Positions 17,207 through 39,540 of a stretch of 64,000 bases of DNA are shown one piece after another (within the stretch, counting starts at the first letter, position 1; each line of letters begins with the position of its first letter). The DNA is from Pelagibacteraceae bacterium AG-390-L03 (lineage in GTDB: Bacteria; Pseudomonadota; Alphaproteobacteria; Pelagibacterales; Pelagibacteraceae). The notes under the pieces are model-generated. The model did no database searches, was not told where the DNA came from, and saw nothing but the letters and a program-made list of their open reading frames with translations. Where the stretch lies: positions 16,303 to 80,302 of the forward strand of contig QCHA01000002.1 in the NCBI GenBank assembly GCA_003279685.1, written 5' to 3'. Both the position numbers and the translations under genes were made by a program.

Positions 17207-17221
17207 TACTTATAACTAAGT

Positions 17222-18967: not shown

Positions 18968-19476
18968 TGAAAACAGAGAATAAACATAAATATTATAATG
19001 ATGAAGATGAAATAAATTTTGAAAAATTAAATAATTTTAGAAAATTTAATTCTAACCTTAAAAATAATATTCAATCAAATAATCATATTATTAAGTATGC
19101 TAATTCTGATAAAAATTATTTTAATAATATTTTAAAGATTGATCAAAAAGCCACTAAATATAATGAAAATGATAAGGAAAAAGAGATAAACTATTATAGC
19201 CTATCAGACTTTCAAAAATTTGATCAACTAGATAGTTTTTCTGAACATAATAATACAGAAAAAATACAAAAAAAAATTAATCTCAAATCAAACTATTCAT
19301 CTAAAGACCATGAAGAGTTTAATAAAATAATTCCAAAAAGAAATTCAGATCAAGAAAAAAATAACGAACTAAACGAAAAAATTAGAGTAATTGATTACAG
19401 TAAAATAAATGAGAATGAAAAAAAACTTAAAAATAAATTTGGGATTGATAAAATAAAAGTAGTTTATTTTGATTAA
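18964..19476 (+). CDS. Orphan N/K/E-rich protein with four ~33-aa-periodic repeats
   Basis: Start overlaps the ATPase stop (ATGA); Y-x3-D-x3-F-x2-[IL] at aa 11, 45, 78, 111; fills the gap inside a tight operon. Confidence 0.7.
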   Translation: MMKTENKHKYYNDEDEINFEKLNNFRKFNSNLKNNIQSNNHIIKYANSDKNYFNNILKIDQKATKYNENDKEKEINYYSLSDFQKFDQLDSFSEHNNTEKIQKKINLKSNYSSKDHEEFNKIIPKRNSDQEKNNELNEKIRVIDYSKINENEKKLKNKFGIDKIKVVYFD

Positions 19477-19481
19477 AAAAA

Positions 19482-21806
19482 ATGGAAATAATTGAAAAGT
19501 TAAAAACTTATAGATCTAGTGTAGATACTTCTTCAAATAAGTATCTAATGGTGCCCATTTTTATTTTTTTTGCTTTATTAATTTTTGCTTTAATTAGAAG
19601 TCCAATACTTATCTCACAATCAGGCATAGGAAGTGCGATAATGCTTACTGCTCCTTTAATTTTAACCACTTACGCTCTAACATTTATAGCTATGGCCGGA
19701 AGAGGTGGGGTTGATTTGTCTATTGGTCCTTTCATGGGTTTTATAAATGTAAGTAGTATTCAACTATATGCTGCTGGATATTTACAAACTCCAATTGGCT
19801 GGTTTGTTTATGCAATAGCAATGGGATTAATTTGGCAGCTTTTCTATGCTTTAATAGTTTGTTTTGTAAGAGTTTCACCAATAATTGTATCTCTAGCTGG
19901 ATATTTAGCATTTGCTGGAATAAATATCGTAATTTTACCAAGACCAGGTGGAATAGCTCCGGACTGGCTGCTTCCATGGGGAGAAGGATTTACAATTCTA
20001 AACCCTATATTTCTTCTAATGATATTGGCGACAATATTATTTTATATAATTACTCATACGGCTTTTTGGGGTCATCTAAAATTAATGGGTTCAGATGAAC
20101 GTGCAGCTTTTACAAGTGGTGTAAAAATTCACCTTGTAAGAATAGTTGCTCATATGATAGCAGGAATTTTTGCAGCTCTTTCTGCAATATGTTTTACGGC
20201 TCTTGTTGGATCTGGAGACCCACTACAAGGAACTAAATACACATTACTAGGTATTACTGCATTAGTTCTAGGTGGCGCAAGTTTGGCTGGTGGGCGTGGA
20301 GGTGCGTTTGGAGCAATTTTAGGTGCATTAAACTTATACCTTATAAATTATATCTTGGTTACTTTTAGATTTGAAAGACTTCAAAGTTTTGTTTCGGACT
20401 TATCTTATGGAGCAGTTTTGGTTATAGCATTATTAGTTAGTCTTATTCTTCCTTATGTCACAAGAGTAACAAAGGGTTTATCGGTAATGGTTTTTTTCAT
20501 TTTAATGGCATTTGCAGGATTATTTGTGGTATTACATCAAGTGTATGATCAACCAATTATTATAGAGAAAGTAGTTGAAACTGATGAAAAATCTCAAAAT
20601 GATGTAAGAGGATCAAAAGTAAGAAAAGTAGATTCAACAGGAAATATTATAGTTGAGGACTCTGAAGCTGGGGCAACAACAGGAACTGGTACTGCTAAAG
20701 GTGGCTCGTTGGCAGGTCATGGCGTAGTTCAACTCACTGAAACACCAGGAACTATAGTGTTTTATGTAATTTTAGGAATAGCATTCGTTGCTTTGTTGCT
20801 TTACCTATTGTCAGCCCATAGAAATCCATCCACGATTTCTTTTGTAATTATCGTAGTCATAATGGCAGCTGGTTTAATTTTTGACCCCGACGATAAAGAA
20901 AAAGACATATTAAAAGATACAGAAAAAATAACTTTAAACTCTAAACAAGTAAGTAGTATTGAAACTTCTGCTCCTCAATACTTTAGCTTGGAAAAAATAA
21001 ACTACTTCCCAAATGTTCTTGAGAGTTCTCTTATTTCTGGAACTACTTATAGTATTATTTATTTTGCTGGAATTGTTTTGTTGGCATCTCTAATTGTAAT
21101 ATCAATGCTTCCTCAATTTAGTCCACGTACTAAATCTACAGCGCTTTTATTTTTTCTAGCAGCTATATCTTTAATTGTTTTAAAAGGTGTTTCATATAAT
21201 AATTTAGTTGAAAGCACTGATAGTAGCTTTTTTGGCATTCAGGGATATGGGGTAATACTAGTTGTTTTACTTTTATTTGTTATAACGGCTCCATTTGTTC
21301 ATTCAAAAATAAAAAACTTAACTAATGTATATATATTTGGATTTGGTATTCTTGCAATAATTTGTACTTATTTTATTGGTGGTAATACTTTTGTTCTAAA
21401 TGATCCATCTTTTTATCAACCTAAAATAATAAGTGAATTAAATATCGGAGATCTTTCTCAAATTAAATACGAAGGGACAAAAAGATTTTTTTATGAAACT
21501 GCAACTTCAGGATATTCTCAATTTGCCTTTAGTATTCTAGCGGTATTTTTAGTCCAATATTTTTTATTCCTTAATATGGGTGAGAAAGCAAATTATAAAA
21601 GATTTGCTCCATATATTTACATAGTAACTATTGCTGTAGCACTTTGGGCTTCAATATTTTATTCTGTAGGATATTCATTATATAAAATTCTTGCAGTATT
21701 AGTAATTGGAATACCTATTACACCTTTGGTTTGGCAATTTATGTCTATCTATAAAGAAAAAAATGCACGTGATAAACAATTAAGTCAATGGGAGGAAATA
21801 AAGTAG
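19482..21806 (+). CDS. CUT2 ABC permease with a ~430-aa multi-TM C-terminal extension
   Basis: GGVDLSIG, HLKLMGSDERAAFTSG, VLGGASLAGGRG in the first ~340 aa, then several additional hydrophobic hairpins. Confidence 0.8.
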   Translation: MEIIEKLKTYRSSVDTSSNKYLMVPIFIFFALLIFALIRSPILISQSGIGSAIMLTAPLILTTYALTFIAMAGRGGVDLSIGPFMGFINVSSIQLYAAGYLQTPIGWFVYAIAMGLIWQLFYALIVCFVRVSPIIVSLAGYLAFAGINIVILPRPGGIAPDWLLPWGEGFTILNPIFLLMILATILFYIITHTAFWGHLKLMGSDERAAFTSGVKIHLVRIVAHMIAGIFAALSAICFTALVGSGDPLQGTKYTLLGITALVLGGASLAGGRGGAFGAILGALNLYLINYILVTFRFERLQSFVSDLSYGAVLVIALLVSLILPYVTRVTKGLSVMVFFILMAFAGLFVVLHQVYDQPIIIEKVVETDEKSQNDVRGSKVRKVDSTGNIIVEDSEAGATTGTGTAKGGSLAGHGVVQLTETPGTIVFYVILGIAFVALLLYLLSAHRNPSTISFVIIVVIMAAGLIFDPDDKEKDILKDTEKITLNSKQVSSIETSAPQYFSLEKINYFPNVLESSLISGTTYSIIYFAGIVLLASLIVISMLPQFSPRTKSTALLFFLAAISLIVLKGVSYNNLVESTDSSFFGIQGYGVILVVLLLFVITAPFVHSKIKNLTNVYIFGFGILAIICTYFIGGNTFVLNDPSFYQPKIISELNIGDLSQIKYEGTKRFFYETATSGYSQFAFSILAVFLVQYFLFLNMGEKANYKRFAPYIYIVTIAVALWASIFYSVGYSLYKILAVLVIGIPITPLVWQFMSIYKEKNARDKQLSQWEEIK

Positions 21807-23207
21807 ATGAAAAAATCAGCATTTCTTTTTTTTAAAGGACTAGGATTATTATTTGCAATTCTTTGTGGAATAGGAACTGCTTTTCTTGGTTGGTATGATG
21901 GCGCAGATTGGATGAATATTGCTACCTACTCTATTGCTGTAACTGGATTAATATTGTGGGGATGGTACCATTTTTCTGTAAGATGGATTAATGAAGATTT
22001 AAAACAAAATATCTTCACTAAATTTCCTAAAGAAGAAATTATAAAAGACGAAGAAGATGAAGAAAATTTTTTCTTCAAAAATATTAGAGAAAATAAATGG
22101 AAAACAATTGCTTTCCTTGGGGTAATTCTAATCTTTATTTTTGTATCTTTTGTAGCAGATGATTTCTTTTCAGGAAGAACCCTAGTTTCATTTTTGATCT
22201 TTTTAGTATTTGTGATTTTTATGGGTATTATCAGCAGATACATAAAAGGTTCAAAAAGTGTTTTTGTAGGGATCTCTGTGTTGATTGGATTGTTTATTAT
22301 TGGATCTCTAACCATACCTGGTTTCTTAACAACCATGAACATGAAATCAATGTTGGTTTTCGCATCATTTTTAGGACTAGCTACTATTGGTCAGACTTTT
22401 GTTGCACTTTTAGGGGGTTTAGATCTTTCAATTCCATTTGTTATTGGCTCTATGAATGTTGGTTTAATGTCGTTAATTTCAAAAGGAGTTCCACCCTGGT
22501 TAGCATGCATAGTAATATTATTGCTAGGAGCTTTAATTGGATTTGTTAATGGAACTCTGAGTTTTAGGCTTCAGGGACAAGCATTAATTTTAACCTTAGG
22601 TGTCGGATTTTTTGTTAAAGGAGGAGTTCAAATTTTAGTCTCTATGGGAACTTTCTCAGCAGGTACAGTTTTTGGTGTAGTACCAGATTGGATGCAAAAT
22701 TTGGCCTCTATGGGAGGAAAAACTATTGGTCTTCCAATACCTCCTGTGATCATTATTTGGATAGTTGCAAGTATATTAGTTATTGTTGCACTTAGATTAA
22801 CAAAATGGGGAAGGCATTTATATGCTTTAGGTGGAAGTAGATTGTCATCATCAAGACTTTCTATTTCTGAAAGAGGATACTGGGTTGGTGCTTATGTTAT
22901 TAGTGGATTTTTCTCAGCTTTAACTGGAATTCTACTTCTTGGTTGGAGTGGTGGAGGATATGTAGGTGCTGGAGATATTTATTTATTCACAACTATAGCT
23001 GCAGTGGTTATTGGTGGAACTTCATTATTAGGAGGTTCTGGAGGTTATGGGTTAAGTGTTATTGGAGTATTTATATTACAAATAATAACAACTGTATTAA
23101 TTGGATGGGGTTTAAGTTGGGAAGCACAACAATTTATTTTAGGATTACTTATTATTCCAATGGTTGCCCTATACGCAAGATCCCCACATATAAGAAGCCA
23201 GATATAA
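21807..23207 (+). CDS. CUT2 ABC permease with a ~150-aa N-terminal TM extension
   Basis: GGLDLSIP, WGRHLYALGGS, VVIGGTSLLGGSG; extra N-terminal helices and acidic linker. Confidence 0.82.
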   Translation: MKKSAFLFFKGLGLLFAILCGIGTAFLGWYDGADWMNIATYSIAVTGLILWGWYHFSVRWINEDLKQNIFTKFPKEEIIKDEEDEENFFFKNIRENKWKTIAFLGVILIFIFVSFVADDFFSGRTLVSFLIFLVFVIFMGIISRYIKGSKSVFVGISVLIGLFIIGSLTIPGFLTTMNMKSMLVFASFLGLATIGQTFVALLGGLDLSIPFVIGSMNVGLMSLISKGVPPWLACIVILLLGALIGFVNGTLSFRLQGQALILTLGVGFFVKGGVQILVSMGTFSAGTVFGVVPDWMQNLASMGGKTIGLPIPPVIIIWIVASILVIVALRLTKWGRHLYALGGSRLSSSRLSISERGYWVGAYVISGFFSALTGILLLGWSGGGYVGAGDIYLFTTIAAVVIGGTSLLGGSGGYGLSVIGVFILQIITTVLIGWGLSWEAQQFILGLLIIPMVALYARSPHIRSQI

Positions 23208-23219
23208 AGGAGAAGATTT

Positions 23220-23939
23220 ATGATAGAATTAAATTGCGATATGGGTGAAAGTTTTGGGATCTATAAAGCGGGTAATGATGAAGAGATAATGCCATTAATA
23301 GATATAGCAAATGTTGCCTGTGGGTTTCATGCTTCTGATCCTAATCATATGAGAAAAACTGTGGCACTTGCAAAAAAACATGGGGTAAAAGTTGGTGCTC
23401 ACCCTTCTTTTTCTGATCTGCAGGGATTTGGAAGAAGAGAAATAAAAATGCCAAGACAAGATATAAAAAATATGGTTATGTATCAGGTAGGTGCTTTAAA
23501 ATCATTTTTAGATGAACAAGATATGCCTTTGAACCATATCAAACCTCATGGATCATTATATGTTATGGCTGCGAAAGATGAAAATATGGCTAACGCAATT
23601 GCAGATGCTGTTGAAACTTTTAATGTGAGTATTTTTGGAATGGCAAATACTTGTCATGAAAAGGTTTATAAAGATGAAAGAGGTTTAAATTTTATAGCAG
23701 AATTTTATGCTGACCTAGATTATGATAAAGAAGGAAACCTAGTTGTAGCTAAAGGAAAAAATGCTAACTACGATAGTAAAATTGCAGCCAAACGTGTCAT
23801 GCGTGCATTAAAAGAAAAAAAAGTTACCAATACTATTGGTAAAGATATAAATGTTGGTTGTGATACAATTTGCGTTCATTCAGATACACCTAATGCAGTT
23901 GAAATAATTACAGGTATTAAATCAGCTCTTAGTAAATGA
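23220..23939 (+). CDS. pxpA: LamB/YcsF family protein (5-oxoprolinase subunit A-like)
   Basis: LNCDMGESFG, ANVACGFHASDP, GAHPS, HIKPHGSLY, TICVHSDTP. Confidence 0.92.
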   Translation: MIELNCDMGESFGIYKAGNDEEIMPLIDIANVACGFHASDPNHMRKTVALAKKHGVKVGAHPSFSDLQGFGRREIKMPRQDIKNMVMYQVGALKSFLDEQDMPLNHIKPHGSLYVMAAKDENMANAIADAVETFNVSIFGMANTCHEKVYKDERGLNFIAEFYADLDYDKEGNLVVAKGKNANYDSKIAAKRVMRALKEKKVTNTIGKDINVGCDTICVHSDTPNAVEIITGIKSALSK

Positions 23940-26389
23940 AAAGAATTTTAATAGCTAACAGAGGTGAAATAGCTTGTAGAATTATTAAAAGCTGTAAAAA
24001 ACTAGGTATACAGTCAATTGCTGTATATTCAGATATAGACAAAAACAGCAAACACGTTAGAGAAGCTGACGAGTCAATCCACATAGGGGGGTCAAAAGCA
24101 CAAGAAAGTTACCTTTTCGCAGAAAAAATCATTGAGGTTGCTAAAAAACTAAATGCTGATGCTATTCATCCAGGATATGGATTTATGGCCGAAAATGCTG
24201 AATTTGCCCAGAATGTAATAGACTCAGGGATAATTTGGATAGGCCCAAAACCAAGCACTATCATATCAATGGGTAATAAAGATGTAGCAAGAGATTTGGC
24301 TATAAAAAATAACCTTCCTATTTGCCCAGGGTTAAAAGATGAAGATTTAAAAAAAGATGATCTAGAAAATAAATGTAATGAAATTGGTTATCCAATTTTA
24401 ATAAAGGCAAGTGCTGGTGGTGGTGGAATTGGAATGCGAATAGCAAACAATTATGAGGAATTAATTCAATCAATTGAAAAAACTAAAAATTTAGCAAAAA
24501 AAGCATTTGGTAATAGCGATATTTTTTTAGAAAAATTTATTTCAAATGCAAGGCATATAGAAATTCAAGTTTTTGGTCTTGGTGAAAGAAAAGCTTTGCA
24601 TTTCTACGAAAGAGATTGCTCAATACAAAGACGCTTTCAAAAAATTATAGAAGAAAGTCCCGCTCCTGAGATTAAAGACTCAATAATTAATGAGATGGCA
24701 GAAAGTGCAGTAAATTTTGTTACAAATCAAAAATATGAAGGAGCTGGTACAATAGAATTTATATACGACATTGATAATAAAAAATTTTATTTTTTAGAAA
24801 TGAATACTAGAATTCAAGTAGAGCACCCTGTTACAGAGATGATCACAAATTCTGATTTAGTTTCAATGCAAATCCAATTTGCATTAAACCTAGATCTACA
24901 ATCTATAGAACAAAATAAAATTAATAAATCAGGACATGCTATTGAATGTAGATTATATGCTGAAGACCCAGCTAAAAACTTTCTTCCTTCTCCAGGTAAA
25001 ATTACTAAATTAAATCTTCCTAATACTGGTTTTGTAGATATTAGACTTGATATAGGTGTAGATGAAGGAGATGAGATATCTTTTTATTATGATCCAATGA
25101 TTGCAAAAATTATTTCAAAAAGTGAAAATAGAATAGAAAGTATAAATAATATGATTCATTATTTAAGTGAATTAAAAATAGAAGGAATTAATACAAATAA
25201 ATCTTTTTTAATTTCAGTTTTAAAAAATGAGTCTTTTGAAAAAGCAACTTATAATACTAAATTTATAGAAAATAATTTATCTTTATTTACAAAAGAATCA
25301 GAAACTTTAAAAAAAAATATAAGTAAAACTATTAATGAAGAAAATATTGTTCAAAAATATACTGATAAAGATGTTGAGGCTTTTAAAAAAATCACAGCAC
25401 AATCTCCTAATAAAAAACACTCAGACCACTACACTGAAAATGATTTCAAAGCATTTAAGAATATTTTAAATAAAAAAAATGATAATCAAAAAAAAGGTTC
25501 TATTAAAAATATAATAGGAAAAGTATATGAAGAACCATTATTTAAACCAGGAGGTGACAAATATATGGTCATTGAATTTGGTAATCTTATGGATCTAGAA
25601 ATTAACTTTACAGCACAAAACTTAGCTAAAGCTATTCTTGATAATAAAATCAAAGGTATTTATGAAACTGCTCCATGTTTTGCTTCGATGCTTATTCATT
25701 ATAATCCTGATGAAATAAAATTTAATGATTTAAAAAATGAGATGAAGTCACTTATTAAGTCATTAGGTCCAACTGATGATATTGAGATTAATAGTAGAAT
25801 TTTCTCATTTCCCACTGTTTATTTAGATAAATGGACAAAAGAATGTATTGAAGATTATTCAAGCAAAATTGTAGAAAAAACTCCTGATCCTGATTTTATT
25901 GTAGAGCTAAATAAACTTGAAAATACTGAACAATTTGTAAGGGTTCATTCTGGAACTGAATATTGGGTTTCGGCACTAGGTTTTTGGCCAGGTCTTCCAT
26001 TTATGATGCCTTTAGACCCTAGATGTAAATTAACTGCACCAAAATATAATCCACCAAGAACCTGGACCCCAAAAGGTGCCGTAGGAATGGGTGGATCTTC
26101 AACTTCAATATATCCTGATAGATTGCCTGGTGGTTATCAAATTTTTGGAATAATACCTGTTCCTATTTGGGATACTCAGAAAAGTTTTTCTGTATTTGAA
26201 GAAAGTATCTGTCTTTTTAAACCTGGTGACAGAGTAAAATTTGTACCCACAAGCTACGAAGAATTTGATCATGTTTCGAATAAGGTAAAGGACAAATCCT
26301 ATGATTATAATATTATTGACTATCAAAAATTTTCAGTAAAAAATTATAAAAATTGGTTAACAACAATTGATAAAACAAAAAGATTTTAA
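23936..26389 (+). CDS. Biotin carboxylase fused to a carboxyltransferase C/D (PxpB/AHS1-like) domain
   Basis: ANRGEIACR, HPGYGF, GGGGIGM, ERDCSIQRR, EMNTRIQVEHPVTE, YYDPMIAK; ~70-aa linker; then GFWPGLPF, PKYNPPRTWTP, PGGYQIFG. Confidence 0.88.
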   Translation: MKRILIANRGEIACRIIKSCKKLGIQSIAVYSDIDKNSKHVREADESIHIGGSKAQESYLFAEKIIEVAKKLNADAIHPGYGFMAENAEFAQNVIDSGIIWIGPKPSTIISMGNKDVARDLAIKNNLPICPGLKDEDLKKDDLENKCNEIGYPILIKASAGGGGIGMRIANNYEELIQSIEKTKNLAKKAFGNSDIFLEKFISNARHIEIQVFGLGERKALHFYERDCSIQRRFQKIIEESPAPEIKDSIINEMAESAVNFVTNQKYEGAGTIEFIYDIDNKKFYFLEMNTRIQVEHPVTEMITNSDLVSMQIQFALNLDLQSIEQNKINKSGHAIECRLYAEDPAKNFLPSPGKITKLNLPNTGFVDIRLDIGVDEGDEISFYYDPMIAKIISKSENRIESINNMIHYLSELKIEGINTNKSFLISVLKNESFEKATYNTKFIENNLSLFTKESETLKKNISKTINEENIVQKYTDKDVEAFKKITAQSPNKKHSDHYTENDFKAFKNILNKKNDNQKKGSIKNIIGKVYEEPLFKPGGDKYMVIEFGNLMDLEINFTAQNLAKAILDNKIKGIYETAPCFASMLIHYNPDEIKFNDLKNEMKSLIKSLGPTDDIEINSRIFSFPTVYLDKWTKECIEDYSSKIVEKTPDPDFIVELNKLENTEQFVRVHSGTEYWVSALGFWPGLPFMMPLDPRCKLTAPKYNPPRTWTPKGAVGMGGSSTSIYPDRLPGGYQIFGIIPVPIWDTQKSFSVFEESICLFKPGDRVKFVPTSYEEFDHVSNKVKDKSYDYNIIDYQKFSVKNYKNWLTTIDKTKRF

Positions 26390-26394
26390 CTTTT

Positions 26395-27519
26395 ATGGTT
26401 CAGGTAATTAAAAAAGGTTTAGAAACATCAGTCCAAGATTATCCTGGAAGAATTGGAACTTTAAATCAAGGATTTCCAGCCTCAGGTCCAATGGATAGTT
26501 GGTCTTTTAGACTTGCAAATATATTGGTTGGAAATAAGCCTGGTGACGCAGCACTAGAGTGTCAATTTATGGGACCAACTCTTAAATTTATTGATGATAG
26601 AACAATAGCTATTACAGGTGCAGACATGTCTCCAAAAATAGATGGTAAAAGTGTTCCTTTATGGGAGAGTATTGAAGTTAAAGCAAATCAAGTTTTAGAA
26701 TTAGAATTTGCCACAATAGGTGCAAGATCATATATTGCTTTTGCTGGAGGAATTAATAGTGAACCTTGGCTTGGATCGAAATCTACATTTCATAAAGCTG
26801 GGGTAGGCGGAATTGATGGTAAAGCTATTGAAAATAATCAAATTCTGCCACTAGGAAACAATAAAAAAATTCAGTTTAGAAAAATAAAAAAAAGTTCAAT
26901 ACCCGAAATCTCTAAAGATAAAAATTGGTCTATAGAAGTTGTTTTAGGTCCCAACGATGATTGGATAGATGACAAAGGTCATGAGATTTTTTTTAATTCT
27001 AAATGGAAACTTCAAGCAAAAAGTGATCGGACAGGGTATAGATTAGATGGACCTAAACTATCTTTCACTGATAAGGCTACAAACAAAAGCCTTGAAAATG
27101 GTTCGGAACCTTCAAATATTATTGACCAGGGCTATCCTGCAGGAGCAATTAATCTTGCAGGTCAAACCCCAATTATTCTTGTTAATGATGGACCAAGCAT
27201 GGGTGGTTTTATTAACCCGTATACTGTGCCATCAGCAACTTTTTGGAAATTAGGACAAGCTAAACCAGGAGATATTCTCAATTTTATAGAAGTTTCAGTT
27301 GAAAAAGCTCAAACATTAAGAGCTGAACAGTCAATCATTTGTAGCGAAGAAAGCCTTATATCTTTTAATAAGAATGAAACTATCAAAAATGAAAAAAACA
27401 AACAATTAGACCCAATAAAGATAATAGATTTTGATAAAAATAAGACGGAGGAGAAAAAAAGAGTAAAATTGATGGAAAAAAAAGGCATGAAAAATATGAA
27501 AATTCGGTTTTTTAATTAA
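26395..27519 (+). CDS. pxpC: Carboxyltransferase A/B (PxpC/AHS2-like) subunit with a charged C-terminal tail
   Basis: VQDYPGR, SGPMD, GARSYIAFAGG, SDRTGYRL, GQTPIIL, GGF..PYTV. Confidence 0.85.
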   Translation: MVQVIKKGLETSVQDYPGRIGTLNQGFPASGPMDSWSFRLANILVGNKPGDAALECQFMGPTLKFIDDRTIAITGADMSPKIDGKSVPLWESIEVKANQVLELEFATIGARSYIAFAGGINSEPWLGSKSTFHKAGVGGIDGKAIENNQILPLGNNKKIQFRKIKKSSIPEISKDKNWSIEVVLGPNDDWIDDKGHEIFFNSKWKLQAKSDRTGYRLDGPKLSFTDKATNKSLENGSEPSNIIDQGYPAGAINLAGQTPIILVNDGPSMGGFINPYTVPSATFWKLGQAKPGDILNFIEVSVEKAQTLRAEQSIICSEESLISFNKNETIKNEKNKQLDPIKIIDFDKNKTEEKKRVKLMEKKGMKNMKIRFFN

Positions 27520-27549
27520 TTATTAAATATGAAAGGAATATTTTAGATA

Positions 27550-27768
27550 ATGACAACTGAGGTAAAAACAACAGTTCCGGGTAATATATGGAAAGTACTA
27601 GTTAAAGTAGGAGATATTGTTAAACAAAATGATGACCTTTTCATTATGGAGGTAATGAAAACAGAGGTACATCACAACTCGCCTATTGATGGAAAAGTTA
27701 TACAAGTAAATATTCAAAATGACCAAGAAGCAGTTGAGCCTGGTACAGTTGCGATTATCATTGAATAA
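27550..27768 (+). CDS. Stand-alone biotin carboxyl carrier protein
   Basis: 72 aa; PG.IWKVLVKVGD and EVMKT (biotinyl-Lys in MK), SPIDG. Confidence 0.85.
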   Translation: MTTEVKTTVPGNIWKVLVKVGDIVKQNDDLFIMEVMKTEVHHNSPIDGKVIQVNIQNDQEAVEPGTVAIIIE

Positions 27769-27771
27769 CAT

Positions 27772-27981
27772 ATGAAATCTAAAAAAAAATTTATTACTAA
27801 ATATTTAGATACTATAATTGAACTATCAAATGAAACTGGGATTTCAAAAAAAGAAGTAAGAACAATCCTAGATATAACATTATCTAATCAAAATCCTGAG
27901 TTTGTTAATTTTGAACTAATAAAAACTGAAATAAAAACATTCATTACAATTAATATTTTTTCGCTAGTGTGTAAATTATAG
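27772..27981 (+). CDS. Small hypothetical protein
   Basis: 69 aa, ATG 3 nt after the BCCP stop; no family recognised. Confidence 0.5.
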   Translation: MKSKKKFITKYLDTIIELSNETGISKKEVRTILDITLSNQNPEFVNFELIKTEIKTFITINIFSLVCKL

Positions 27982-28008
27982 AGTGATAAAAAAATATAAT
28001 TTTTTAAA

Positions 28009-28845
28009 TTAATCGTAATAAAACATTGGAGCTTTTTTCCAATCTAACCATGTAACAGGGTCATGTCCCCAAACTACTTTAGCATTATAATCTTTGGCAA
28101 CTTTTCTTAATTTTTTAACAGAGTCAGCCGCATCTGAAGCAGAAGCAACAAGTCCAGGCAGACATTTATCACACCAATGATCTCCTGTATAACATGCGTC
28201 TCCAGTAAATAACATATGTCCAGTTTTTGGTAAATTTACAAGAACCGATTGATGACCAGGAGTATGTCCAGGAGTAAATATTATTTTAATAACACCATCT
28301 CCAAAGACATCATAAAAATCTGTTTTTCTTCCCTGTAAAAATTTCCATCTTATATTTGGTTTATCAAAATCTGCTCTTACATAAGCTGGTTGTGAAAACC
28401 AGTCTGGATTGAATGCATAATCGTATTCTACTCTTTGTGTAATATGTGTTGCATTAGGAAAGTGACCAATTGCTCCTGAATGATCAAGATGTAAGTGAGT
28501 TTGAATAACATATTTAACATCCTCTGGGTTTGTGTTTACAGATTTAACTACTTCTTTGCACCACTCTGAAGCTTTCATCACAGGATCATAAGCCTCAACA
28601 ACATTTCCCCAATGTTTATGTTTGTCTAGAGCTGCCTCAATTGGCATTCCTCCATCAATAATAACATCTCCTTCAGGATGTTTAATTAAAAACCAAGGTA
28701 CAGGAATTTCATAAGCTTCTTCACCTTGATTCATCTTTATGAATTTCAATTTAGTTTTTATAGAACCAGTTTGAAACATATATAGTTTAATTCCACTATT
28801 AAACTTTGTTGTTTTTTCAAAAAAGTCATCAGAAATATTATTCAT
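28009..28845 (-). CDS. attM: AttM/AiiB-type lactonase (metallo-beta-lactamase fold)
   Basis: HLHLDH, TPGHTPGH, GDACY, GHD; also KMNQG..YEIPVP, PDWF, DFDKP and KKAP features recalled from AttM/BlcC. Confidence 0.85.
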   Translation of the reverse strand: MNNISDDFFEKTTKFNSGIKLYMFQTGSIKTKLKFIKMNQGEEAYEIPVPWFLIKHPEGDVIIDGGMPIEAALDKHKHWGNVVEAYDPVMKASEWCKEVVKSVNTNPEDVKYVIQTHLHLDHSGAIGHFPNATHITQRVEYDYAFNPDWFSQPAYVRADFDKPNIRWKFLQGRKTDFYDVFGDGVIKIIFTPGHTPGHQSVLVNLPKTGHMLFTGDACYTGDHWCDKCLPGLVASASDAADSVKKLRKVAKDYNAKVVWGHDPVTWLDWKKAPMFYYD

Positions 28846-28853
28846 ACTTTATT

Positions 28854-30020
28854 CTACCAGGCTGCCTCATATATGTTAAGAGCGTCATTTTCAGTCAGTT
28901 CTCTTGGGTTATTCACTAATAAACGAGTTTGTTTCATTGCATCTGATGCCATTTTTTTACATGCCTCTTTTGGAATATTTACCTCTCTTAATCTTTGAGG
29001 AAGTCCAATTTTTTGTGACAAACTCTCTAATCGATCAATAAATTCTTTGCATACTGCTTGGCTCCCCTTTTCAGTGTTAATATCTTGGAAAACAAATGGG
29101 GCTAATTCAGCATAATTTTTTGTTGTTTTGCTATCTACACTATTAAATCTTAAAACGTATGGAAGAACTAAAGAGTTTGACAATCCATGAGACACATGAA
29201 AAGTTCCTCCAATCGGATAGGCAAGAGCATGGACTGCTGCAACAGGAGAATTAGCAAATGCTTTCCCAGCTAACATTGCTCCAATTAACATGTTGCCTCT
29301 AGCCTCAATATTCGAACCATCAAATACAGCTTTTTCTATTGAACCCGACAAAAGTTTTAGTGCTTCGATAGCTAACATTTTTGAAATTGGATTATTATTT
29401 TTGTTTGATGAAGTATAACCCTCTATAGCATGAACCATAGCGTCAATTCCTGTAGCTGCTGTTGTGTGTGCTGGTAATCCAATTGTTAAATCTGGATCTA
29501 AAATTGCAATATCAGGTAAAATTATTGGCGAAGAAACTCCTTTCTTTTCTTCATCTCCAACTGTTATGATAGATATAGGAGTTACCTCCGAGCCTGTTCC
29601 AGCTGTAGTCGGTATTAAAATTAATGGTAATCTTGGACCTTTAGCATTAGAAACACCCCAGGCGTCTTCAATATTTTCATTTGAACCTAAAATTAAAGAA
29701 GTTAATTTAGCTACATCCATTGAAGATCCTCCCCCAAATCCAATAACACCTGTAGCATTAATTTTTTTTCCAACTTCTATAGAGTGTAGAAGTGTTTTAA
29801 TTGAAGGATCTGCTTCTACATCTTGAAAAACTTCAACTATTGATGAATATTTATTTAGTTCAGTTAGAGTTGGTTCAGTTAAATTTAAAGACATCAACCC
29901 TTTATCAGTTATAAATAAAACATTTGGTCCCAGTTTTTTTGAAATTTCTTCAACACATATTTTAGACATTCCACTTCCAAATCTAATTCCTGAAGTAGTA
30001 TTAAATGTAAAATTATTCAT
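28854..30020 (-). CDS. Iron-containing alcohol dehydrogenase (AttL/BlcB-like)
   Basis: GGGSSMDVAK, PTTAGTGSEVT, GIDAMVHAIE, AVHALAYP, HGLSN. Confidence 0.88.
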   Translation of the reverse strand: MNNFTFNTTSGIRFGSGMSKICVEEISKKLGPNVLFITDKGLMSLNLTEPTLTELNKYSSIVEVFQDVEADPSIKTLLHSIEVGKKINATGVIGFGGGSSMDVAKLTSLILGSNENIEDAWGVSNAKGPRLPLILIPTTAGTGSEVTPISIITVGDEEKKGVSSPIILPDIAILDPDLTIGLPAHTTAATGIDAMVHAIEGYTSSNKNNNPISKMLAIEALKLLSGSIEKAVFDGSNIEARGNMLIGAMLAGKAFANSPVAAVHALAYPIGGTFHVSHGLSNSLVLPYVLRFNSVDSKTTKNYAELAPFVFQDINTEKGSQAVCKEFIDRLESLSQKIGLPQRLREVNIPKEACKKMASDAMKQTRLLVNNPRELTENDALNIYEAAW

Positions 30021-30031
30021 ACCCCTAATTC

Positions 30032-32098
30032 CTAAACGTAATAAACATAAAATATTATTGAAAATATAGCTAGACCAATTAATATTAAGATCCAGCCATA
30101 GCCAGTTCCTAAATTATCTAAATAATTTTTTTCTCCCGAAACTTCATCTGGATGTTTGTGAAGATCACCAGACTGTATTGGTTTATTTGGTAAAGTTGAT
30201 AAATCCATTTTACTTGCTAAAAACCAAATCAAACCAATTCCAAAAAACCACCATATTAATTGATATCCCCATAATGAAGGTATCTTTAAAATCCAAGATT
30301 CATATCCTGCATTTGGAGCGCCAAAAAAATTATTTCCAAGAACTTGTCCTGGACCTACTCCAAAGAATAACCATATAAGTGCAATAACATATGCAAATGA
30401 TCTTAATTTTGTTCTACTCGGATGAAGGCCCATGTGTTCATTTAAAAAATCATGAAATTTTTGACGATAATCTCTATCATTATCTACTTTTGCTATTGAT
30501 GAAAACGCTGAGACTGAAAAACAAATAAATACATTGAATAATAAGCCCCAAACACCTGAATGAATAGTCAATGGCCATCTTCCCCAAGGCAATCTATTTC
30601 CTGAAATTTGCTGACCAATAGTTTCTGTTAAAATAACAATTATTATTCCAATTATTATACCAGATATAGCGGCTCCTCTTGTTATCCATGGAAACCAGAC
30701 AAGACCAAGTAGAACAATTAAAAATTGAAAAGCTATAGCAATTGAAATACCACTAAAAATAATCATAGCAGGTTTGGCAAATGTAGCTAGATAAAGTGAG
30801 GCCAGAAACATTAACATCATAATTATACGAGCTGCTCTTCGCTCCTTCTCCCAGTTCGAGTTCTTATCTACGTAAGCTTTATAAAAATCTCTAGTAACGA
30901 TGCTACCTGAAGTCATTAAAAGGGCAGCTGCTGTAGATTGAAGTGCAGCAACTAATCCAACAGCCAATAAACCAGTTAACCATAAGGCATGTTTGTCCAT
31001 TAAACCGATAATATGATAAACAATTGATGAATGATCTTTACTTGAAACTTCTGGTAAAAGCTTATTAACGAAAAGACCATTATTATTAATTTCAGCACTA
31101 GCCCCCAATAAAATTGCTCCAATTCCTTGAAAAGTTGTAAATATAAATAATAATAAACCAACAATAACTGCAGATCCCCATATTTGGTAATAAGAAAAAG
31201 CTTTAGGGTGTTTTGCTGTATAGCTTAACATTGAAAATGATGGTGACAGTACTATTCCCATAAAAGAAATTGTAAATGTAAATATCATCATCGCAGTCCA
31301 AGGACCTCCAATTGCTTCATTTTTTCCTAAACCAGCTACCCATTGTATAACACCTGGTAATGCGAAATAACCGTTATAGTCACCTCCTCCATAACCATTT
31401 GTATTTCCCCAAAAACTAATTTTTGTATTTGCTATTTTTGCTAATGATTTACCAAAAGTTTCTATATCTCCTATAAAGGAATAAGTGATTAATCCTAAAA
31501 TAATTATTGTTAAAAAATAAAGCCAAGATTGAACTACACCTACACTAAAAATAGATTTAAAACCTCCTCTTGTTACATAGAATAATACAATGATTGAAAT
31601 TACCCACATTCCTAATTCTCTAGAAACATACTCACCAGTTAATGTATTTATAAGATAACCTGTTGCTCCAAATAAAACAGCAAGTAAGGGTATTGCGAAA
31701 AAAAAAGTTACCAAAACAGAAATAATTCTAATGGTATCACTTTTATAGTAATCATAATACATTTCACCAGGAGTAATGTATCCAAATTTTCTGCTTAGCA
31801 TCCATTGTCTTTTAAAAAAAAATATACTCCCTAAAGGAACAGTTATAGCAATAAAAGCCGTACCAACATATTGAAAGCCATCATGAAAGATAAGGCTGGT
31901 TTGAGAAATTACAGTTAAGCCTGCAAACGTTGCGGCTGTTGCTGCAAAGAAAAAAACCCATGAAGAAATACTTCTATTTGCTAGATAATAATTTTCTGGA
32001 TTATCAGAATTATACCTTGATCCTCTAACGCCCCAAAAAAAACAATAGGCAGCATATAATAATATGAAGATAAATAACCAAACTGATTTTTCAGACAT
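30032..32098 (-). CDS. Sodium:solute symporter family protein (start revised to ATG 32098)
   Basis: YYLANRS, ITPGE, GG..S, AALQST, many TM helices. The ORF-track start at 32230 overlaps the upstream gene and reads as a Lys-rich artefact; MSEKSV at 32098 removes the overlap. Confidence 0.85.
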   Translation of the reverse strand: MSEKSVWLFIFILLYAAYCFFWGVRGSRYNSDNPENYYLANRSISSWVFFFAATAATFAGLTVISQTSLIFHDGFQYVGTAFIAITVPLGSIFFFKRQWMLSRKFGYITPGEMYYDYYKSDTIRIISVLVTFFFAIPLLAVLFGATGYLINTLTGEYVSRELGMWVISIIVLFYVTRGGFKSIFSVGVVQSWLYFLTIIILGLITYSFIGDIETFGKSLAKIANTKISFWGNTNGYGGGDYNGYFALPGVIQWVAGLGKNEAIGGPWTAMMIFTFTISFMGIVLSPSFSMLSYTAKHPKAFSYYQIWGSAVIVGLLLFIFTTFQGIGAILLGASAEINNNGLFVNKLLPEVSSKDHSSIVYHIIGLMDKHALWLTGLLAVGLVAALQSTAAALLMTSGSIVTRDFYKAYVDKNSNWEKERRAARIIMMLMFLASLYLATFAKPAMIIFSGISIAIAFQFLIVLLGLVWFPWITRGAAISGIIIGIIIVILTETIGQQISGNRLPWGRWPLTIHSGVWGLLFNVFICFSVSAFSSIAKVDNDRDYRQKFHDFLNEHMGLHPSRTKLRSFAYVIALIWLFFGVGPGQVLGNNFFGAPNAGYESWILKIPSLWGYQLIWWFFGIGLIWFLASKMDLSTLPNKPIQSGDLHKHPDEVSGEKNYLDNLGTGYGWILILIGLAIFSIIFYVYYV

Positions 32099-32132
32099 AT
32101 GACTTGGCCATATCGTAGATCCTTTTGTTAGA

Positions 32133-32498
32133 TTAAGTGCAGCGTCTAGGTGCTGATTCACCTTTTTCTTTTTTAATTCTTTCAGCTTCTTCTTGGGCTT
32201 CTTTAATCGTTGAGTAAGCCTTATCTTCAAATATTATAAATGGTTTAGCTCTATCAGCATTCAATTGAGCAACACACCATTCTTTGTCAGGTTTAGTGCA
32301 CATCACCATATACGCACCAGGTATAGGTCCATATTTTCTATTATTTAATGTAAAAAGGCTTTTTGCCAGTTCATTCAATTTATCTTCATCCAAATTCCCT
32401 AGAGCATTTTTTTCCAAATTATTTAATGGAGTTTTATTGTCTGAACCTAAAATACTTTTTCCACCTGTTCCTTCAGGTCTAGTAAATTGATTGCTCAT
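32133..32498 (-). CDS. Second dimethylformamidase small-subunit-like protein (partial homolog)
   Basis: YMVMCTKPDKEWCVAQLNADRAKPFIIFEDKAYSTIKEA aligns by eye with KYVTVCKKDFEDYRIGIVTGVRGDPVEILEESFSSEEA of the 34878 protein. Confidence 0.55.
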   Translation of the reverse strand: MSNQFTRPEGTGGKSILGSDNKTPLNNLEKNALGNLDEDKLNELAKSLFTLNNRKYGPIPGAYMVMCTKPDKEWCVAQLNADRAKPFIIFEDKAYSTIKEAQEEAERIKKEKGESAPRRCT

Positions 32499-34855
32499 TA
32501 TGGTAATGGTCCATCTTTTAAAAATCCTCTAATTGTATTTTCTAAAATTTTAGAGACATTATTATTGTAATTATTGTAAGACAAACTTCCACAGAAAGAA
32601 AGTGATCCAGGAGCAAACAAAGCTCCATCGTTTGGTGTTTTGTAATAAATCATATCTGCTCTAACCATAGGATTTTCTGTACCTCCGCCGTAATATCCTC
32701 TTACAGTAAAATGAATCTCTTCATTTACTTGCATCATTAAATTTGTATGGTTTTCTGATCTTGCTAATAGATAAGCATTATGAGGTGTTCCAAATTCTAA
32801 ATCATATCTATCAAGCTCAAGTCCTGCTGCACCTCCACCTACTAAGCCAAAATCTCCTATTACTTCATCTTTTCCAACACCATCAAAAATCCAAGAACAT
32901 TCAGGTCGTTCGCTATCAGGAGACCTTTTGTAATAAGAGCTAACATCAAATCCATATGCTGTAAAAGTTAATCCACATACTTTTGATGGTATTCTCCCTC
33001 GAGCTCTCCACATACCTCCATATTTTCCATCAAAGGCATTATTGTATTCTCCTGGGTTTGCAGTCCATGCTCTAGTACCAGCTTCACCTTTTCTTACTTC
33101 AATGATATTTGGATTGTCAGGGTGATACTCGCTAATCCAATAAAAACCATCTGAACCTAAGTATATCCATCTTCCACCATTAAGCTGATATTGCTCATAA
33201 GCTGCTAACATTTTTTCAGAACTATATTCAGGATGTGATCCTGTTAAAACACATTTGTATCTATTTAACAATTCTACACCTTCTAAATGTAAGTCTTCGT
33301 CTGTAACAACATCAAAATCTAAATTTTTTTCTTCTAACCAATCAGTTAAATGCAAATCTGCATTAAGTTGCCAAAGAGAAGGTGATAACCAATGTCTATA
33401 TTTTGGTCTCATATTCAAAATAGGTCTTAGTCTAGATGCAATTGCAACACCACTTCCATCTGAATGTTGAGAGTAAGTTGATAATCCATATTCTCTATGT
33501 TCATTTAAATACAAATCTGATGCTGACATAACTGGTACTTTTCCAGCTAATAATTGAGCTACAACTGAATTAGTACCAAGGTTATCATTAGAATAGGCTA
33601 TGTAACTATTTGTTGGCAAAACAAATAGAAGGTCCGAAGTAGTTTTTCCTTTAGGAGGTTTGATTACAAATGGAATAAAATCCTCTGTTTCTGCTGAATC
33701 TTCACCATTTATTCTTAATCTTGCTGCATAAACTCCACTTTTAATTTTATCTGGGACTTTATAAACAAAATCTACATCCCATCTTGCATCGTCAATATCG
33801 TCATCGTGAAAATGAATGGCACCGTACTCTTCTGGCTTATGATGAAATACCATTTCATCAGCGGTCCAATTGTATCCTGTCATAGCTCTACATGGTAAAT
33901 TTATAATAAAGCCATTAAGATGATTAGATGTCATATCAACAATTAAAGTTGATGCCATATTTTTAGTGATGTTAGCATGAAAATCCCAAGCTCCTATAAC
34001 TTCAGATCTTAGCTCAGAAGTACAACCGCTAAACCCTCTAGCGAGAGACTCTATCTCTGATTTAGATAATGCTTTTTTACTTAATCTTGGCCTATCTATC
34101 TTTCCGTTATAAGTTAAAGTTTGTTCTGGTAATTCAATGGGACTAAGTGCTTCTTTATAATGTCCACCAAAAATATGTCTTCCAGATCTATCATTTAATG
34201 TGCTTGCTGCCATTAAGAATGGAGCATCATTGGCTCTTGGTTTTAAATTACTAATAGATTCAACATAAGCTGTAGTTTCATCAGCTGGATGAAGAAGTGA
34301 CATACCAAGTCCACCGTTAGTAGGTGTAACACAAGGCTCTTGATATAGTTTTAATTTTCCTGTTTCCGCATCATACGTAGCTGCTACTAAGTACCAAACT
34401 TTTCTCATTAATTTCTTTTCACTAGAAACTGAAGTTGTTTGCCCTCCTCCGTCTCCAATCATTACTGATAAACAACTATTCTCATCTATAAATAACCCAT
34501 AGCCACTTTGAGTTTTATCATTCCATTTTGTTAAGATTCCCTGTTTACCTTTGTCTGGTGTTGTAGGGAAAATATAAGCCTGTAGAGTAAAGCTTGTTGT
34601 ATTTAATCTTTCATCTTGAGGTATTACAATATAGGAGCCTCCATGAATTTTTTGATTTTTTCCTTGATAATTTCTATTACATTCAGCACCTATCTCTTCA
34701 TCTTTATACCCTGGTCCTTCAGGATTTGTGTCTCCATGAATTAATCTAACAATTTGAACCTCATAATTTTCATTTTTCTCTGCATTAACATAAAATTTAA
34801 TCTCTTCACCTGGAAAAGATGTGTACTTATCGCTATATCCTGTAATTCTTAACAT
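32498..34855 (-). CDS. dmfA2: N,N-dimethylformamidase large (beta) subunit family protein
   Basis: ITGYSDKY start, LamG-like N-terminal part, WDFH, NSYIAYSN, GLSTY, GSHPEY, GFYW, GLELDR, VRADM. Confidence 0.88.
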   Translation of the reverse strand: MLRITGYSDKYTSFPGEEIKFYVNAEKNENYEVQIVRLIHGDTNPEGPGYKDEEIGAECNRNYQGKNQKIHGGSYIVIPQDERLNTTSFTLQAYIFPTTPDKGKQGILTKWNDKTQSGYGLFIDENSCLSVMIGDGGGQTTSVSSEKKLMRKVWYLVAATYDAETGKLKLYQEPCVTPTNGGLGMSLLHPADETTAYVESISNLKPRANDAPFLMAASTLNDRSGRHIFGGHYKEALSPIELPEQTLTYNGKIDRPRLSKKALSKSEIESLARGFSGCTSELRSEVIGAWDFHANITKNMASTLIVDMTSNHLNGFIINLPCRAMTGYNWTADEMVFHHKPEEYGAIHFHDDDIDDARWDVDFVYKVPDKIKSGVYAARLRINGEDSAETEDFIPFVIKPPKGKTTSDLLFVLPTNSYIAYSNDNLGTNSVVAQLLAGKVPVMSASDLYLNEHREYGLSTYSQHSDGSGVAIASRLRPILNMRPKYRHWLSPSLWQLNADLHLTDWLEEKNLDFDVVTDEDLHLEGVELLNRYKCVLTGSHPEYSSEKMLAAYEQYQLNGGRWIYLGSDGFYWISEYHPDNPNIIEVRKGEAGTRAWTANPGEYNNAFDGKYGGMWRARGRIPSKVCGLTFTAYGFDVSSYYKRSPDSERPECSWIFDGVGKDEVIGDFGLVGGGAAGLELDRYDLEFGTPHNAYLLARSENHTNLMMQVNEEIHFTVRGYYGGGTENPMVRADMIYYKTPNDGALFAPGSLSFCGSLSYNNYNNNVSKILENTIRGFLKDGPLP

Positions 34856-34877
34856 TTTATATGCCTTTTAATTTTGA

Positions 34878-35303
34878 TCATTGTCCATGTCTTTCTAAAA
34901 GATCTAAAATTCTTTTTAAAAAAATTGCATGTTCGACAGCTTCTTCAGAAGAAAAAGATTCTTCTAAAATTTCAACTGGATCTCCTCTTACTCCTGTAAC
35001 TATTCCAATTCTATAATCTTCAAAATCTTTTTTACATACCGTTACATATTTTTTAATTGCCATTGGTTGTCTTCGAAGTTTATCTAAAACAATTTGAAGT
35101 TCTTTACTATGTTCAACCATTGGCTGACCTTTATGAGGTTGTGGGGCTCGACCAACTGGAGTTGCTCTGTGTTCTTCTATTAATTTGTTTCTCATTTTTT
35201 CATCTCTTAATAGTGGTAATACATATTTTTCAGTAATATAATCATCAGTACTTGTGTGACCAAGATTAAGTTGAACTCCTGTTTTATCTTTTTCCATATC
35301 CAC
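34878..35303 (-). CDS. dmfA1: N,N-dimethylformamidase small (alpha) subunit-like protein
   Basis: LIEEHRATPVG, HSKELQIVLDKLRRQP, EHAIFLKRI; immediately upstream of the large subunit. Confidence 0.75.
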   Translation of the reverse strand: MDMEKDKTGVQLNLGHTSTDDYITEKYVLPLLRDEKMRNKLIEEHRATPVGRAPQPHKGQPMVEHSKELQIVLDKLRRQPMAIKKYVTVCKKDFEDYRIGIVTGVRGDPVEILEESFSSEEAVEHAIFLKRILDLLERHGQ

Positions 35304-35317
35304 TCCTAGTAACTAAA

Positions 35318-36172: not shown

Positions 36173-36205
36173 TTTTTAAATCCTTTTAATTCAATAAAAT
36201 TCATC

Positions 36206-36595: not shown

Positions 36596-36609
36596 ATATC
36601 TTTAACTCT

Positions 36610-38586: not shown

Positions 38587-38600
38587 ATATTATTCCCCCC

Positions 38601-39305
38601 TTAATTCTGATTACCTTTCTTTGTATCTTCTAAAGCTGCGCTATAAATTATCATTCCAAAAATGATTTTATTTAATACGTCAGCTAAATTATAAATTATG
38701 TTTAAACTGTTAATATTTGCTCCACCAGCAAGGTGCTCTATAAAGTATCCAATATGATATATTGAAAAACCTATTGTAATTATTAGTCTATTTGCAAAAA
38801 ATGCCATCTGAACTCGCTCATTATTGCAAGATGCATTTGCTCGTCCAGCATCTCCCATATAAAGCTCTCCAATGATATAAAGCCATCCAACAATACCTAC
38901 TAAGAACCCAAGAGTTACACTCATGTAACCATAAGCCCCTAAAAGTTGTGCAATAACCCAAACTAACGTCCCAACTAGCAATCTCCAGAACATTCCACGC
39001 TTAATATCTGTAACTGACTTAAGCATCACATAGAAAGTGAGTATTGTAAGTGGAAATGTTAACAGCCAATCAATATATCTTAGCGCTGTTGGTGCTTGAC
39101 CATTCAAAACCCACAAATTTTTTGCATAGAAGTAATGAATCGATGACATTAATGCTATAACACCAACTAAATTCATTACTGTTCCCCATTTTGGAGACAG
39201 TCGTCCTCTTTCAAGAAAGAAAAATATTGCTGCACCTATCATCGCTACGGATATTAACCAAAAAGATCCGCCTACTACGTCTTGTGGAAGCAATAATTTG
39301 TTCAT
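38601..39305 (-). CDS. Proteorhodopsin-family paralog with DTT motif (flotillin-associated rhodopsin)
   Basis: Seven TMs, SFW, HY, RYIDWLLTFPLTILT (D79/T83/T90), NLADVLNK (K213); adjacent to flotillin. Confidence 0.92.
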   Translation of the reverse strand: MNKLLLPQDVVGGSFWLISVAMIGAAIFFFLERGRLSPKWGTVMNLVGVIALMSSIHYFYAKNLWVLNGQAPTALRYIDWLLTFPLTILTFYVMLKSVTDIKRGMFWRLLVGTLVWVIAQLLGAYGYMSVTLGFLVGIVGWLYIIGELYMGDAGRANASCNNERVQMAFFANRLIITIGFSIYHIGYFIEHLAGGANINSLNIIYNLADVLNKIIFGMIIYSAALEDTKKGNQN

Positions 39306-39540
39306 AAGCTAAAATTTTACCCTCTCAAACTACATTTAAAGATAAAATGACACGCAAAGCAAATTAAAAGTGTTTATATTTTAAATATATAATTTTTATA
39401 TGTAGATGAAAACTTTTAGTTAAATTATGAAAAATTGAAAAAAAATTTCAAATTCAATCACTGGTAGAATTTTACAGAAAATTTTTAGTTAAATCTTATT
39501 CATTCGATCATAACTTAATTATAGAATATATTGCTTACTT

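Follow-up and report, generated by a model that had tools for sequence, protein, structure and literature searches.

In Agrobacterium, gamma-butyrolactone (GBL) is degraded by three successive activities: AttM converts GBL to 4-hydroxybutyrate (GHB), AttL converts GHB to succinic semialdehyde (SSA) and AttK converts SSA to succinate, as stated in a review (PMC5924552) citing Chai et al. 2007 (PMC1855881). According to the same review, BlcC/AttM also cleaves many N-acyl homoserine lactones (AHLs), and the blc operon is induced by GBL, GHB and SSA, not by AHLs (PMC5924552). The classical gene order, consisting of an IclR-type regulator, a succinic semialdehyde dehydrogenase (SSADH), an alcohol dehydrogenase (ADH) and AttM, is seen in Agrobacterium fabrum C58 and in Pantoea ananatis. 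Here, we describe an iron-type ADH (Fe-ADH) and an AttM-family lactonase encoded side by side in a 64,000-nucleotide stretch of DNA (hereafter the window; contig C2:16303-80302, GenBank QCHA01000002.1) from Pelagibacteraceae bacterium AG-390-L03, a 1.35 Mb single-cell assembly of the Pelagibacterales (SAR11). The pair makes up the last two cistrons of a flotillin-associated rhodopsin (FAR) operon, and we lean towards reading it as a blc-type step in the catabolism of lactones and 4-hydroxy acids.

The FAR island was described by Haro-Moreno et al. 2023 (PMC10308929), in which AG-390-L03 is a reference single-amplified genome and Table S2 lists the ADH as cds47 and the lactonase as cds46; the coordinates and protein sequences of the window match that table exactly. 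The FAR rhodopsin is retinal-less, transcripts of the island are present at 60 m, the lower photic zone is where the island is enriched, and no FAR cluster was found in any isolate (PMC10308929). The same study reads the island through membrane microdomains and light, leaving the lactonase unmentioned in its main text. Expression of the FAR cluster at the deep chlorophyll maximum and, in a preprint, a structure of a FAR rhodopsin have also been reported, and the later FArhodopsin literature that was searched makes no mention of the lactonase. The genes are already deposited and tabulated, and no discussion of their blc-like nature, or of its bearing on the FAR island, was found in the literature searched.

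A lactonase of the AttM family

The pair consists of the following features, all read on the reverse strand of the window:

28854..30020, minus strand: iron-type alcohol dehydrogenase, an AttL/BlcB-like cousin, 388 aa; Pfam PF00465 and PF25137
28846..28853, minus strand: spacer of 8 nt from the ADH stop codon (TAG) to the lactonase ATG, read from the sequence
28009..28845, minus strand: AttM/BlcC-family lactonase of the metallo-beta-lactamase (MBL) fold, 278 aa, without a signal peptide; Pfam Lactamase_B, NCBIfam NF045700

Family models and alignments place the lactonase as a full member of the AttM family. It scores 400.9 bits against the NCBIfam model NF045700, ‘AttM family quorum-quenching N-acyl homoserine lactonase’, and thereby passes the cut-off of 390, as do its homologues from Martelella (415 bits) and HIMB59 (427 bits), while its scores against the AiiA, AhlS and 4-pyridoxolactonase models fall far under their cut-offs (155 bits against 375 for AiiA). 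Identity to AttM/BlcC of A. fabrum C58 is 57% over 259 residues (lactonase residues 19-276), which bears out an earlier reading of this DNA, made without database searches (the sequence-only reading), that had called the enzyme AttM-like along its length. More broadly, the lactonase is 55-65% identical to AttM-annotated proteins and at most 34% identical to all others; among plasmid matches, AttM-family proteins at 49% identity or more are followed by a gap down to AiiA (34%) and AiiB (25%). The best match in the Protein Data Bank (PDB) is 9kho, an ‘N-acylhomoserine lactonase’ (E=4.5e-97). The active site is intact: the HLHLDH motif occupies residues 117-122 (H117, H119, D121 and H122), H194, D216 and H261 are kept together with Y219, the catalytic tyrosine of AHL lactonases, and in the alignment the metal ligands coincide with those of AttM, AiiA and AiiB.

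For the wider family, one genome per prokaryote species was scanned with an AttM alignment and the best 80 loci were kept. A careful phylogeny of 25 rows, with very long outgroups left out and the order among groups unresolved, contains four supported groups: SAR11-FAR (100/100), HIMB59-FAR (94/94), Rhizobiales-FAR (89/97) and classical blc AttM (99/96). On this tree, the characterized enzyme therefore appears as one of four co-equal branches of a single family. The phylogeny that the sequence-only reading had suggested as a check thus puts the lactonase in one family with AttM; AiiA and AiiB stand apart by identity. A version rooted with AiiA, AiiB and a Variovorax protein proved unusable, having branches of 8-9 substitutions per site, and was rebuilt without them.

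Several lineage-specific traits accompany this family membership. Near D216, which bridges the metals, and the catalytic residue Y219, SAR11 lactonases carry the clade-specific residues G215, C218, G221, C225 and C228, where all other AttM-family members have I, A, L/M, E/N and A, respectively; one divergent SAR11 copy (L067) is without most of them. These residues could alter the pocket, or the cysteines could cluster as a redox or metal site. The HIMB59 lactonase (HIMB59-cds26 in Table S2 of PMC10308929; L070, L086) bears a charged N-terminal extension of ~45-55 aa, for a total of 313 aa, which is absent from the SAR11 and Rhizobiales enzymes. On plasmid p6 of Rhizobium bangladeshense (L103), a long-branch AttM-like lactonase, 49% identical, ends a sugar-type ABC transporter operon without an ADH or SSADH, a further context for the AttM family.

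The iron-type alcohol dehydrogenase

The ADH matches the Pfam families Fe-ADH (PF00465) and ADH_Fe_C (PF25137) with 133 and 181 bits, both above the gathering score. Its dinucleotide motif GGGS96-99 and metal ligands D193, H197, H264 and H278 are present, and they are kept in 72-74 of 74 aligned relatives, so this active site, too, is intact. Identity to AttL/BlcB of C58 is 48% over the whole length; the FAR ADHs of Martelella and HIMB59 are closer, at 56% and 66-67%, respectively, and PDB matches include FucO and YqhD. A homology search with the ADH among protein variants returned only near-identical SAR11 copies (89-99% identity). None of the NCBIfam equivalog cut-offs is reached by the ADH, nor by AttL; against NF058672 (4-hydroxybutyrate dehydrogenase, Cupriavidus type), the ADH scores 228 bits with a cut-off of 500, and because AttL itself likewise scores 228, this model does not cover the AttL type.

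In a quick phylogeny of 74 rows with SH-aLRT support, the SAR11 ADHs form one clade (support 97) with two representatives, the Rhizobiales-FAR ADHs and two ADHs from Rhizobiales plasmids, gabD being two genes away from one of these plasmid ADHs. AttL sits in the neighbouring subclade, and the two subclades lie within a clade of support 99 that excludes 35 other Fe-ADH representatives; grouping with unrelated Fe-ADH subfamilies, the outcome that would have spoken against a blc-like pair, was thus not observed. The comparison with attL-attM (blcBC) drawn by the sequence-only reading holds for homology, for gene order and for the AttM family of the lactonase, although the ADH falls in a sister subclade and is not an AttL orthologue.

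Coupling of the two genes

The Fe-ADH lies directly upstream of the HxHxDH lactonase, and both open reading frames (ORFs) and the 8-nt gap are exactly as the sequence-only reading had them. Other genomes supply 51 SAR11 loci in which 3-13 nt separate the ADH stop from the lactonase start that follows, and because of this conserved spacing, the adjacency is not due to chance. Comparison with other SAR11 copies gives a dN/dS of 0.04-0.065 for both genes, showing strong purifying selection. The ADH and lactonase are also the last two of ten same-strand genes separated by gaps of 8-33 nt. Scans for promoters and terminators over 27400-40200 performed no better than on shuffled sequence, so the operon structure rests on the small gaps and on the transcript data of PMC10308929.

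The rhodopsin-flotillin operon and its island

FArhodopsin and flotillin, on the same strand and 14 nt apart, head a conserved accessory island. Upstream of the pair, and facing it from the convergent operon, the window holds the following:

38601..39305, minus strand: flotillin-associated rhodopsin (FArhodopsin), first gene of the operon; Pfam Bac_rhodopsin (PMC10308929)
36610..38586, minus strand: flotillin; Pfam Flot and Band_7 (PMC10308929)
36206..36595, minus strand: SCP2-like protein, 129 aa, 65% identical to its Martelella homologue; InterPro SCP2 superfamily in Table S2 (PMC10308929)
35318..36172, minus strand: alpha/beta hydrolase, the most conserved island protein
34878..35303, minus strand: 141-aa protein without a family match, conserved partner of the DMFase-like gene
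32498..34855, minus strand: N,N-dimethylformamidase (DMFase) large-subunit-like protein; Pfam DMFA2_C, 1.3e-90
32133..32498, minus strand: 121-aa protein without a family match, co-conserved with the DMFase-like gene
30032..32230, minus strand: sodium:solute symporter (SSS), directly upstream of the ADH with an 11-nt gap; Pfam SSF
27772..27981, plus strand: 69-aa ORF without a family match, between the biotin carboxyl carrier protein (BCCP) gene and the lactonase gene at the convergent-operon junction
16004..27768, plus strand: convergent operon of the same island, encoding an ABC importer, PxpA, a split biotin carboxylase/carboxyltransferase and BCCP; Pfam and NCBIfam, syntenic in SAR11 loci

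The symporter start at 32230 is that of the longest ORF, and the published start equals 32098. Atlas cluster names agree with the SCP2-like assignment of the 129-aa protein, as a lead only. The hydrolase is 80% identical between SAR11 (30% GC) and Martelella (L014:30938-31786) and 86% between SAR11 and HIMB59 (L125:6031-6876); a PDB search found no close solved structure for it, and PDB and Atlas gave no functional lead. The substrate-binding protein and a permease of the convergent operon are 51-53% identical to their counterparts in the Martelella cluster. An Rfam search returned nothing credible in the two long spacers bordering the island.

Distribution and synteny across lineages

Window proteins were placed on the 80 loci by tblastn, and layouts were called only where the flank was long enough. 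FAR-type genes are present at nearly all of these loci, and three layouts can be told apart. The SAR11 layout (52 loci) runs flotillin, SCP2-like protein, hydrolase, 141-aa protein, DMFase, 121-aa protein, SSS, ADH and lactonase. In the HIMB59 layout, the order is rhodopsin, flotillin, SCP2-like protein, hydrolase, SSS, 141-aa protein, DMFase, 121-aa protein and lactonase, with no adjacent ADH; the closest known relative of the SAR11 ADH (66-67%) lies 24.6 kb off at the far edge of the HIMB59 islands, beside a mipZ-like gene. In Table S2 of PMC10308929, SAR11-cds10 bears the flag ‘SAR11 only’ and HIMB59-cds01 the flag ‘HIMB59 only’, and both are Fe-ADHs, 66-67% identical (L124:6867-8018, genome G704). 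The ADH is therefore an island gene shared by SAR11 and HIMB59.

The third layout is that of Rhizobiales and Rhodobacterales (Martelella, Zhengella, Nitratireductor, Rhodobiaceae, Roseovarius and metagenome-assembled genomes (MAGs)), in which a divergent IclR gene is followed by the SCP2-like protein, hydrolase (~80%), lactonase, ABC importer, rhodopsin, flotillin, a small protein, SSS and ADH. The adjacency of SSS and ADH thus recurs there, the ADH after the symporter being 56-60% identical to that of SAR11. Seven Rhizobiales-type genomes were checked for an SSADH, and in five of them (Martelella and G001-G003 as well as G005, but neither G004 nor G578) one comes directly after the ADH. Its identity to AttK is 58-61%, and in Martelella it scores 696 bits on TIGR01780, above the cut-off of 646. 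The IclR regulator is 39-43% identical to BlcR. With regulator, lactonase, ADH and SSADH present, Rhizobiales-type FAR clusters hold, by homology, all four parts of the Agrobacterium blc system. Strict orthology of this IclR protein to BlcR was considered and not retained: BlcR-type regulators occur among only 134 plasmid hits, but closer relatives are found in other contexts. The 141-aa and 649-aa proteins of Martelella were likewise rejected as the DMFase pair, the larger one being the symporter.

Among 300 sampled Pelagibacterales species genomes, the lactonase occurs in six, all of one genus, making the pair a rare accessory trait of SAR11; one of the six (G106) is an unpublished genome, on which the count partly depends. 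The complete genome of Candidatus Pelagibacter sp. Uisw_094 (NZ_CP159823.1, L061) holds the whole island, with a lactonase 86% and an ADH 90% identical. A SAR11-type island with 64-97% protein identity is also found on a contig (PAKE01000017.1, L060) of a MAG labelled Flavobacteriales bacterium SAT77, probably through a binning error.

A candidate for the final oxidation in SAR11

The sequence-only reading had noted that a semialdehyde dehydrogenase is missing from the operon, and this extends to the surroundings, as no SSADH was found within 10 kb in any SAR11 locus. Nor was there a BlcR-like match in the window or in SAR11 loci. The genome encodes seven aldehyde dehydrogenases (ALDHs), none of which passes the SSADH model. 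The best candidate is a core ALDH (contig C10:1472-2875; L004) that is 40% identical to AttK and has SSADH as its top family. It is present at 76-96% identity in 5/5 island genomes and in 5/5 island-free genomes, and in G130, a complete genome, ~28 kb separate it from the island. This SSADH-like core ALDH is a candidate for the last oxidation step in SAR11.

Proposed function and alternatives

In the blc-type mechanism that we favour, a cytoplasmic, binuclear-metal AttM-family lactonase would open a small gamma-lactone to the 4-hydroxy acid, with a GBL-like compound as the most likely substrate and homoserine lactones as possible ones. The NAD(P)-dependent Fe-ADH would then oxidize the hydroxy acid to the semialdehyde, and it might alternatively be fed by hydroxy acid imported directly through the symporter encoded just upstream. 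Since the island is without a semialdehyde dehydrogenase, the final oxidation, to succinate if the substrate is GBL or GHB, would fall to a core-genome ALDH. This three-step scheme is based on the activities of AttM, AttL and AttK, on homology, and on FAR-type clusters in which lactonase, ADH, SSADH and IclR regulator repeatedly occur together; which compound is the substrate, in which direction the ADH works and which dehydrogenase comes last are inferred from these. Sequence cannot decide between GBL, another lactone and an AHL as the substrate.

A number of observations weigh against this proposal. From lineage to lineage, it is the alpha/beta hydrolase and the SCP2-like protein, and not the ADH, that accompany the lactonase most constantly. 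Because of these partners, and of the glycine and cysteine changes near D216 and Y219, which could shift specificity in the SAR11 lactonase, the true substrate may be a larger or more lipophilic or complex lactone, AHLs included. Pseudothioglobus FAR clusters are without the lactonase (table of PMC10308929), and the blc-like module is therefore not universal in FAR islands. The candidate SSADH of SAR11 scores 490 bits with a cut-off of 646. The ADH, for its part, is placed by phylogeny as a cousin and not a strict orthologue of AttL. As a control, 400 alphaproteobacterial genomes were drawn evenly; 17 of them have an ADH with 49% identity or more, in two cases in FAR clusters. The other 15 loci have no AttK-like SSADH or lactonase within ~9 kb, and the two annotated contexts among them (a GST with a SulP transporter, and a thioesterase with a LysR regulator) are unrelated. 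With none of these 15 members having a nearby SSADH, a general linkage of the ADH clade to SSADH was dropped, and the clade as a whole cannot carry the label of 4-hydroxybutyrate dehydrogenase.

The most likely of the alternatives makes the lactone an internal intermediate of a longer, whole-island pathway involving the alpha/beta hydrolase, the SCP2-like protein, the DMFase-like amidase and PxpA/carboxylase, with the ADH acting on a different alcohol and the likeness to attLM reflecting ancestry rather than a shared substrate. It would account for the joint presence of hydrolase, SCP2-like protein and lactonase in all three lineages, the hydrolase being, at 80-86% identity, above the lactonase, as well as for the varying position of the ADH (beside the lactonase in SAR11, at a distance of 24.6 kb in HIMB59 and of 11 kb in Rhizobiales) and the varied contexts of ADH-clade members elsewhere. 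What it leaves hard to explain, unless SSA or a close analogue is formed, is an ADH followed directly by a true SSADH in Rhizobiales, and the lactonase has kept its 55-65% identity to the GBL-active AttM; on balance, we regard such a pathway as unlikely.

Somewhat less likely still is quorum quenching or signal scavenging, in which AHLs of other bacteria would be the lactonase substrates and the ADH would be incidental or act on the ring-opened product. SAR11 bacteria are free-living at low density, where AHLs are scarce. The AHL activity of BlcC/AttM (PMC5924552) and the quorum-quenching name of the NCBI family fit this idea, and an SCP2-like lipid-binding protein co-conserved with the lactonase would suit acylated substrates, but the enzyme is cytoplasmic, and its operon is a catabolic one that also encodes transporters and a dehydrogenase. 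The Rhizobiales versions, moreover, pair with SSADH and an IclR protein (39-43% identical to BlcR), following a GBL logic, and the Agrobacterium operon responds to GBL, GHB and SSA instead of AHLs (PMC5924552). The sequence-only reading had envisaged lactone or signal scavenging by such a pair in a non-signalling host: no LuxI-family match was found in the genome, which is weak backing as the search had no positive control, and the pair is not an independent operon, being the 3′ end of the ten-gene rhodopsin-flotillin operon of a published island. Taken together, what that reading had observed is confirmed, and its interpretation is partly supported.

A reductive ADH, serving aldehyde detoxification or the conversion of SSA to GHB so that the pair would not be a catabolic route to the tricarboxylic acid cycle, is very improbable: many Fe-ADHs act as reductases in vivo (the PDB matches include FucO and YqhD) and the SAR11 island has no SSADH, but the route would end in lactone formation, a direction that a hydrolase does not usefully catalyse, and oxidation is what the SSADH partner in Rhizobiales clusters suggests.

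Implications for the FAR island

Among the bacteria in which the FAR cluster is conserved are some of the most abundant in the ocean. The blc-like pair suggests that the island is at least in part a unit for lactone and hydroxy-acid catabolism. A broader and more tentative proposal, which we hold to be possible though doubtful, is that the island core is an expanded blc-type regulon by which gamma-lactones and 4-hydroxy acids, either GBL/GHB-like or derived from homoserine lactones, would be taken up and oxidized, and in which the retinal-less rhodopsin and flotillin would organize or sense for uptake and not harvest light. If true, a deep-photic subpopulation of SAR11 and HIMB59 would be specialized on a class of dissolved lactones not yet measured as marine substrates. 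With its AttM-family lactonase and AttL-like dehydrogenase, the island points to defined compounds to test, namely GBL, GHB, SSA and homoserine lactones, and culturable FAR hosts are available in Pelagibacter sp. Uisw_094 and Martelella sp. AD-3. Taken alone, the pair is a modest result, a version of a known catabolic module without its regulator and SSADH in a minority of SAR11 genomes.

Comparison with known systems

With respect to the FAR cluster of Pelagibacterales, HIMB59 and Pseudothioglobus (PMC10308929), the locus is the same DNA. AiiA of Bacillus and AiiB of the Ti plasmid share with the SAR11 lactonase the MBL fold, the HxHxDH~H~D~H metal site and the catalytic tyrosine, but their identity is only 34% and 25%, respectively, and neither occurs in a dehydrogenase context. 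A much closer counterpart is the cluster on the plasmid of Martelella sp. AD-3 (NZ_CP014276.1), with its SCP2-like protein (65% identical), hydrolase (80%), lactonase (65%), ABC importer (51-53%) and Fe-ADH (56%), which also has the rhodopsin, flotillin and SSS of the SAR11 island. Unlike SAR11, the Rhizobiales and Rhodobacterales clusters have added IclR and SSADH genes, are without the DMFase-like and carboxylase modules and place the lactonase and ADH 11 kb apart.

The characterized system of reference is blcABC (attKLM) with BlcR (AttJ) on pAtC58 of strain C58. The lactonase belongs to the same family, the Fe-ADH gene immediately precedes that of the lactonase in the same orientation, as attL does attM, and the predicted chemistry would likewise lead from lactone to 4-hydroxy acid to semialdehyde. 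In contrast to blcABC, the SAR11 island is without SSADH or an IclR regulator, its ADH falls in a sister subclade, and the pair ends a ten-gene operon that opens with a retinal-less rhodopsin and flotillin.

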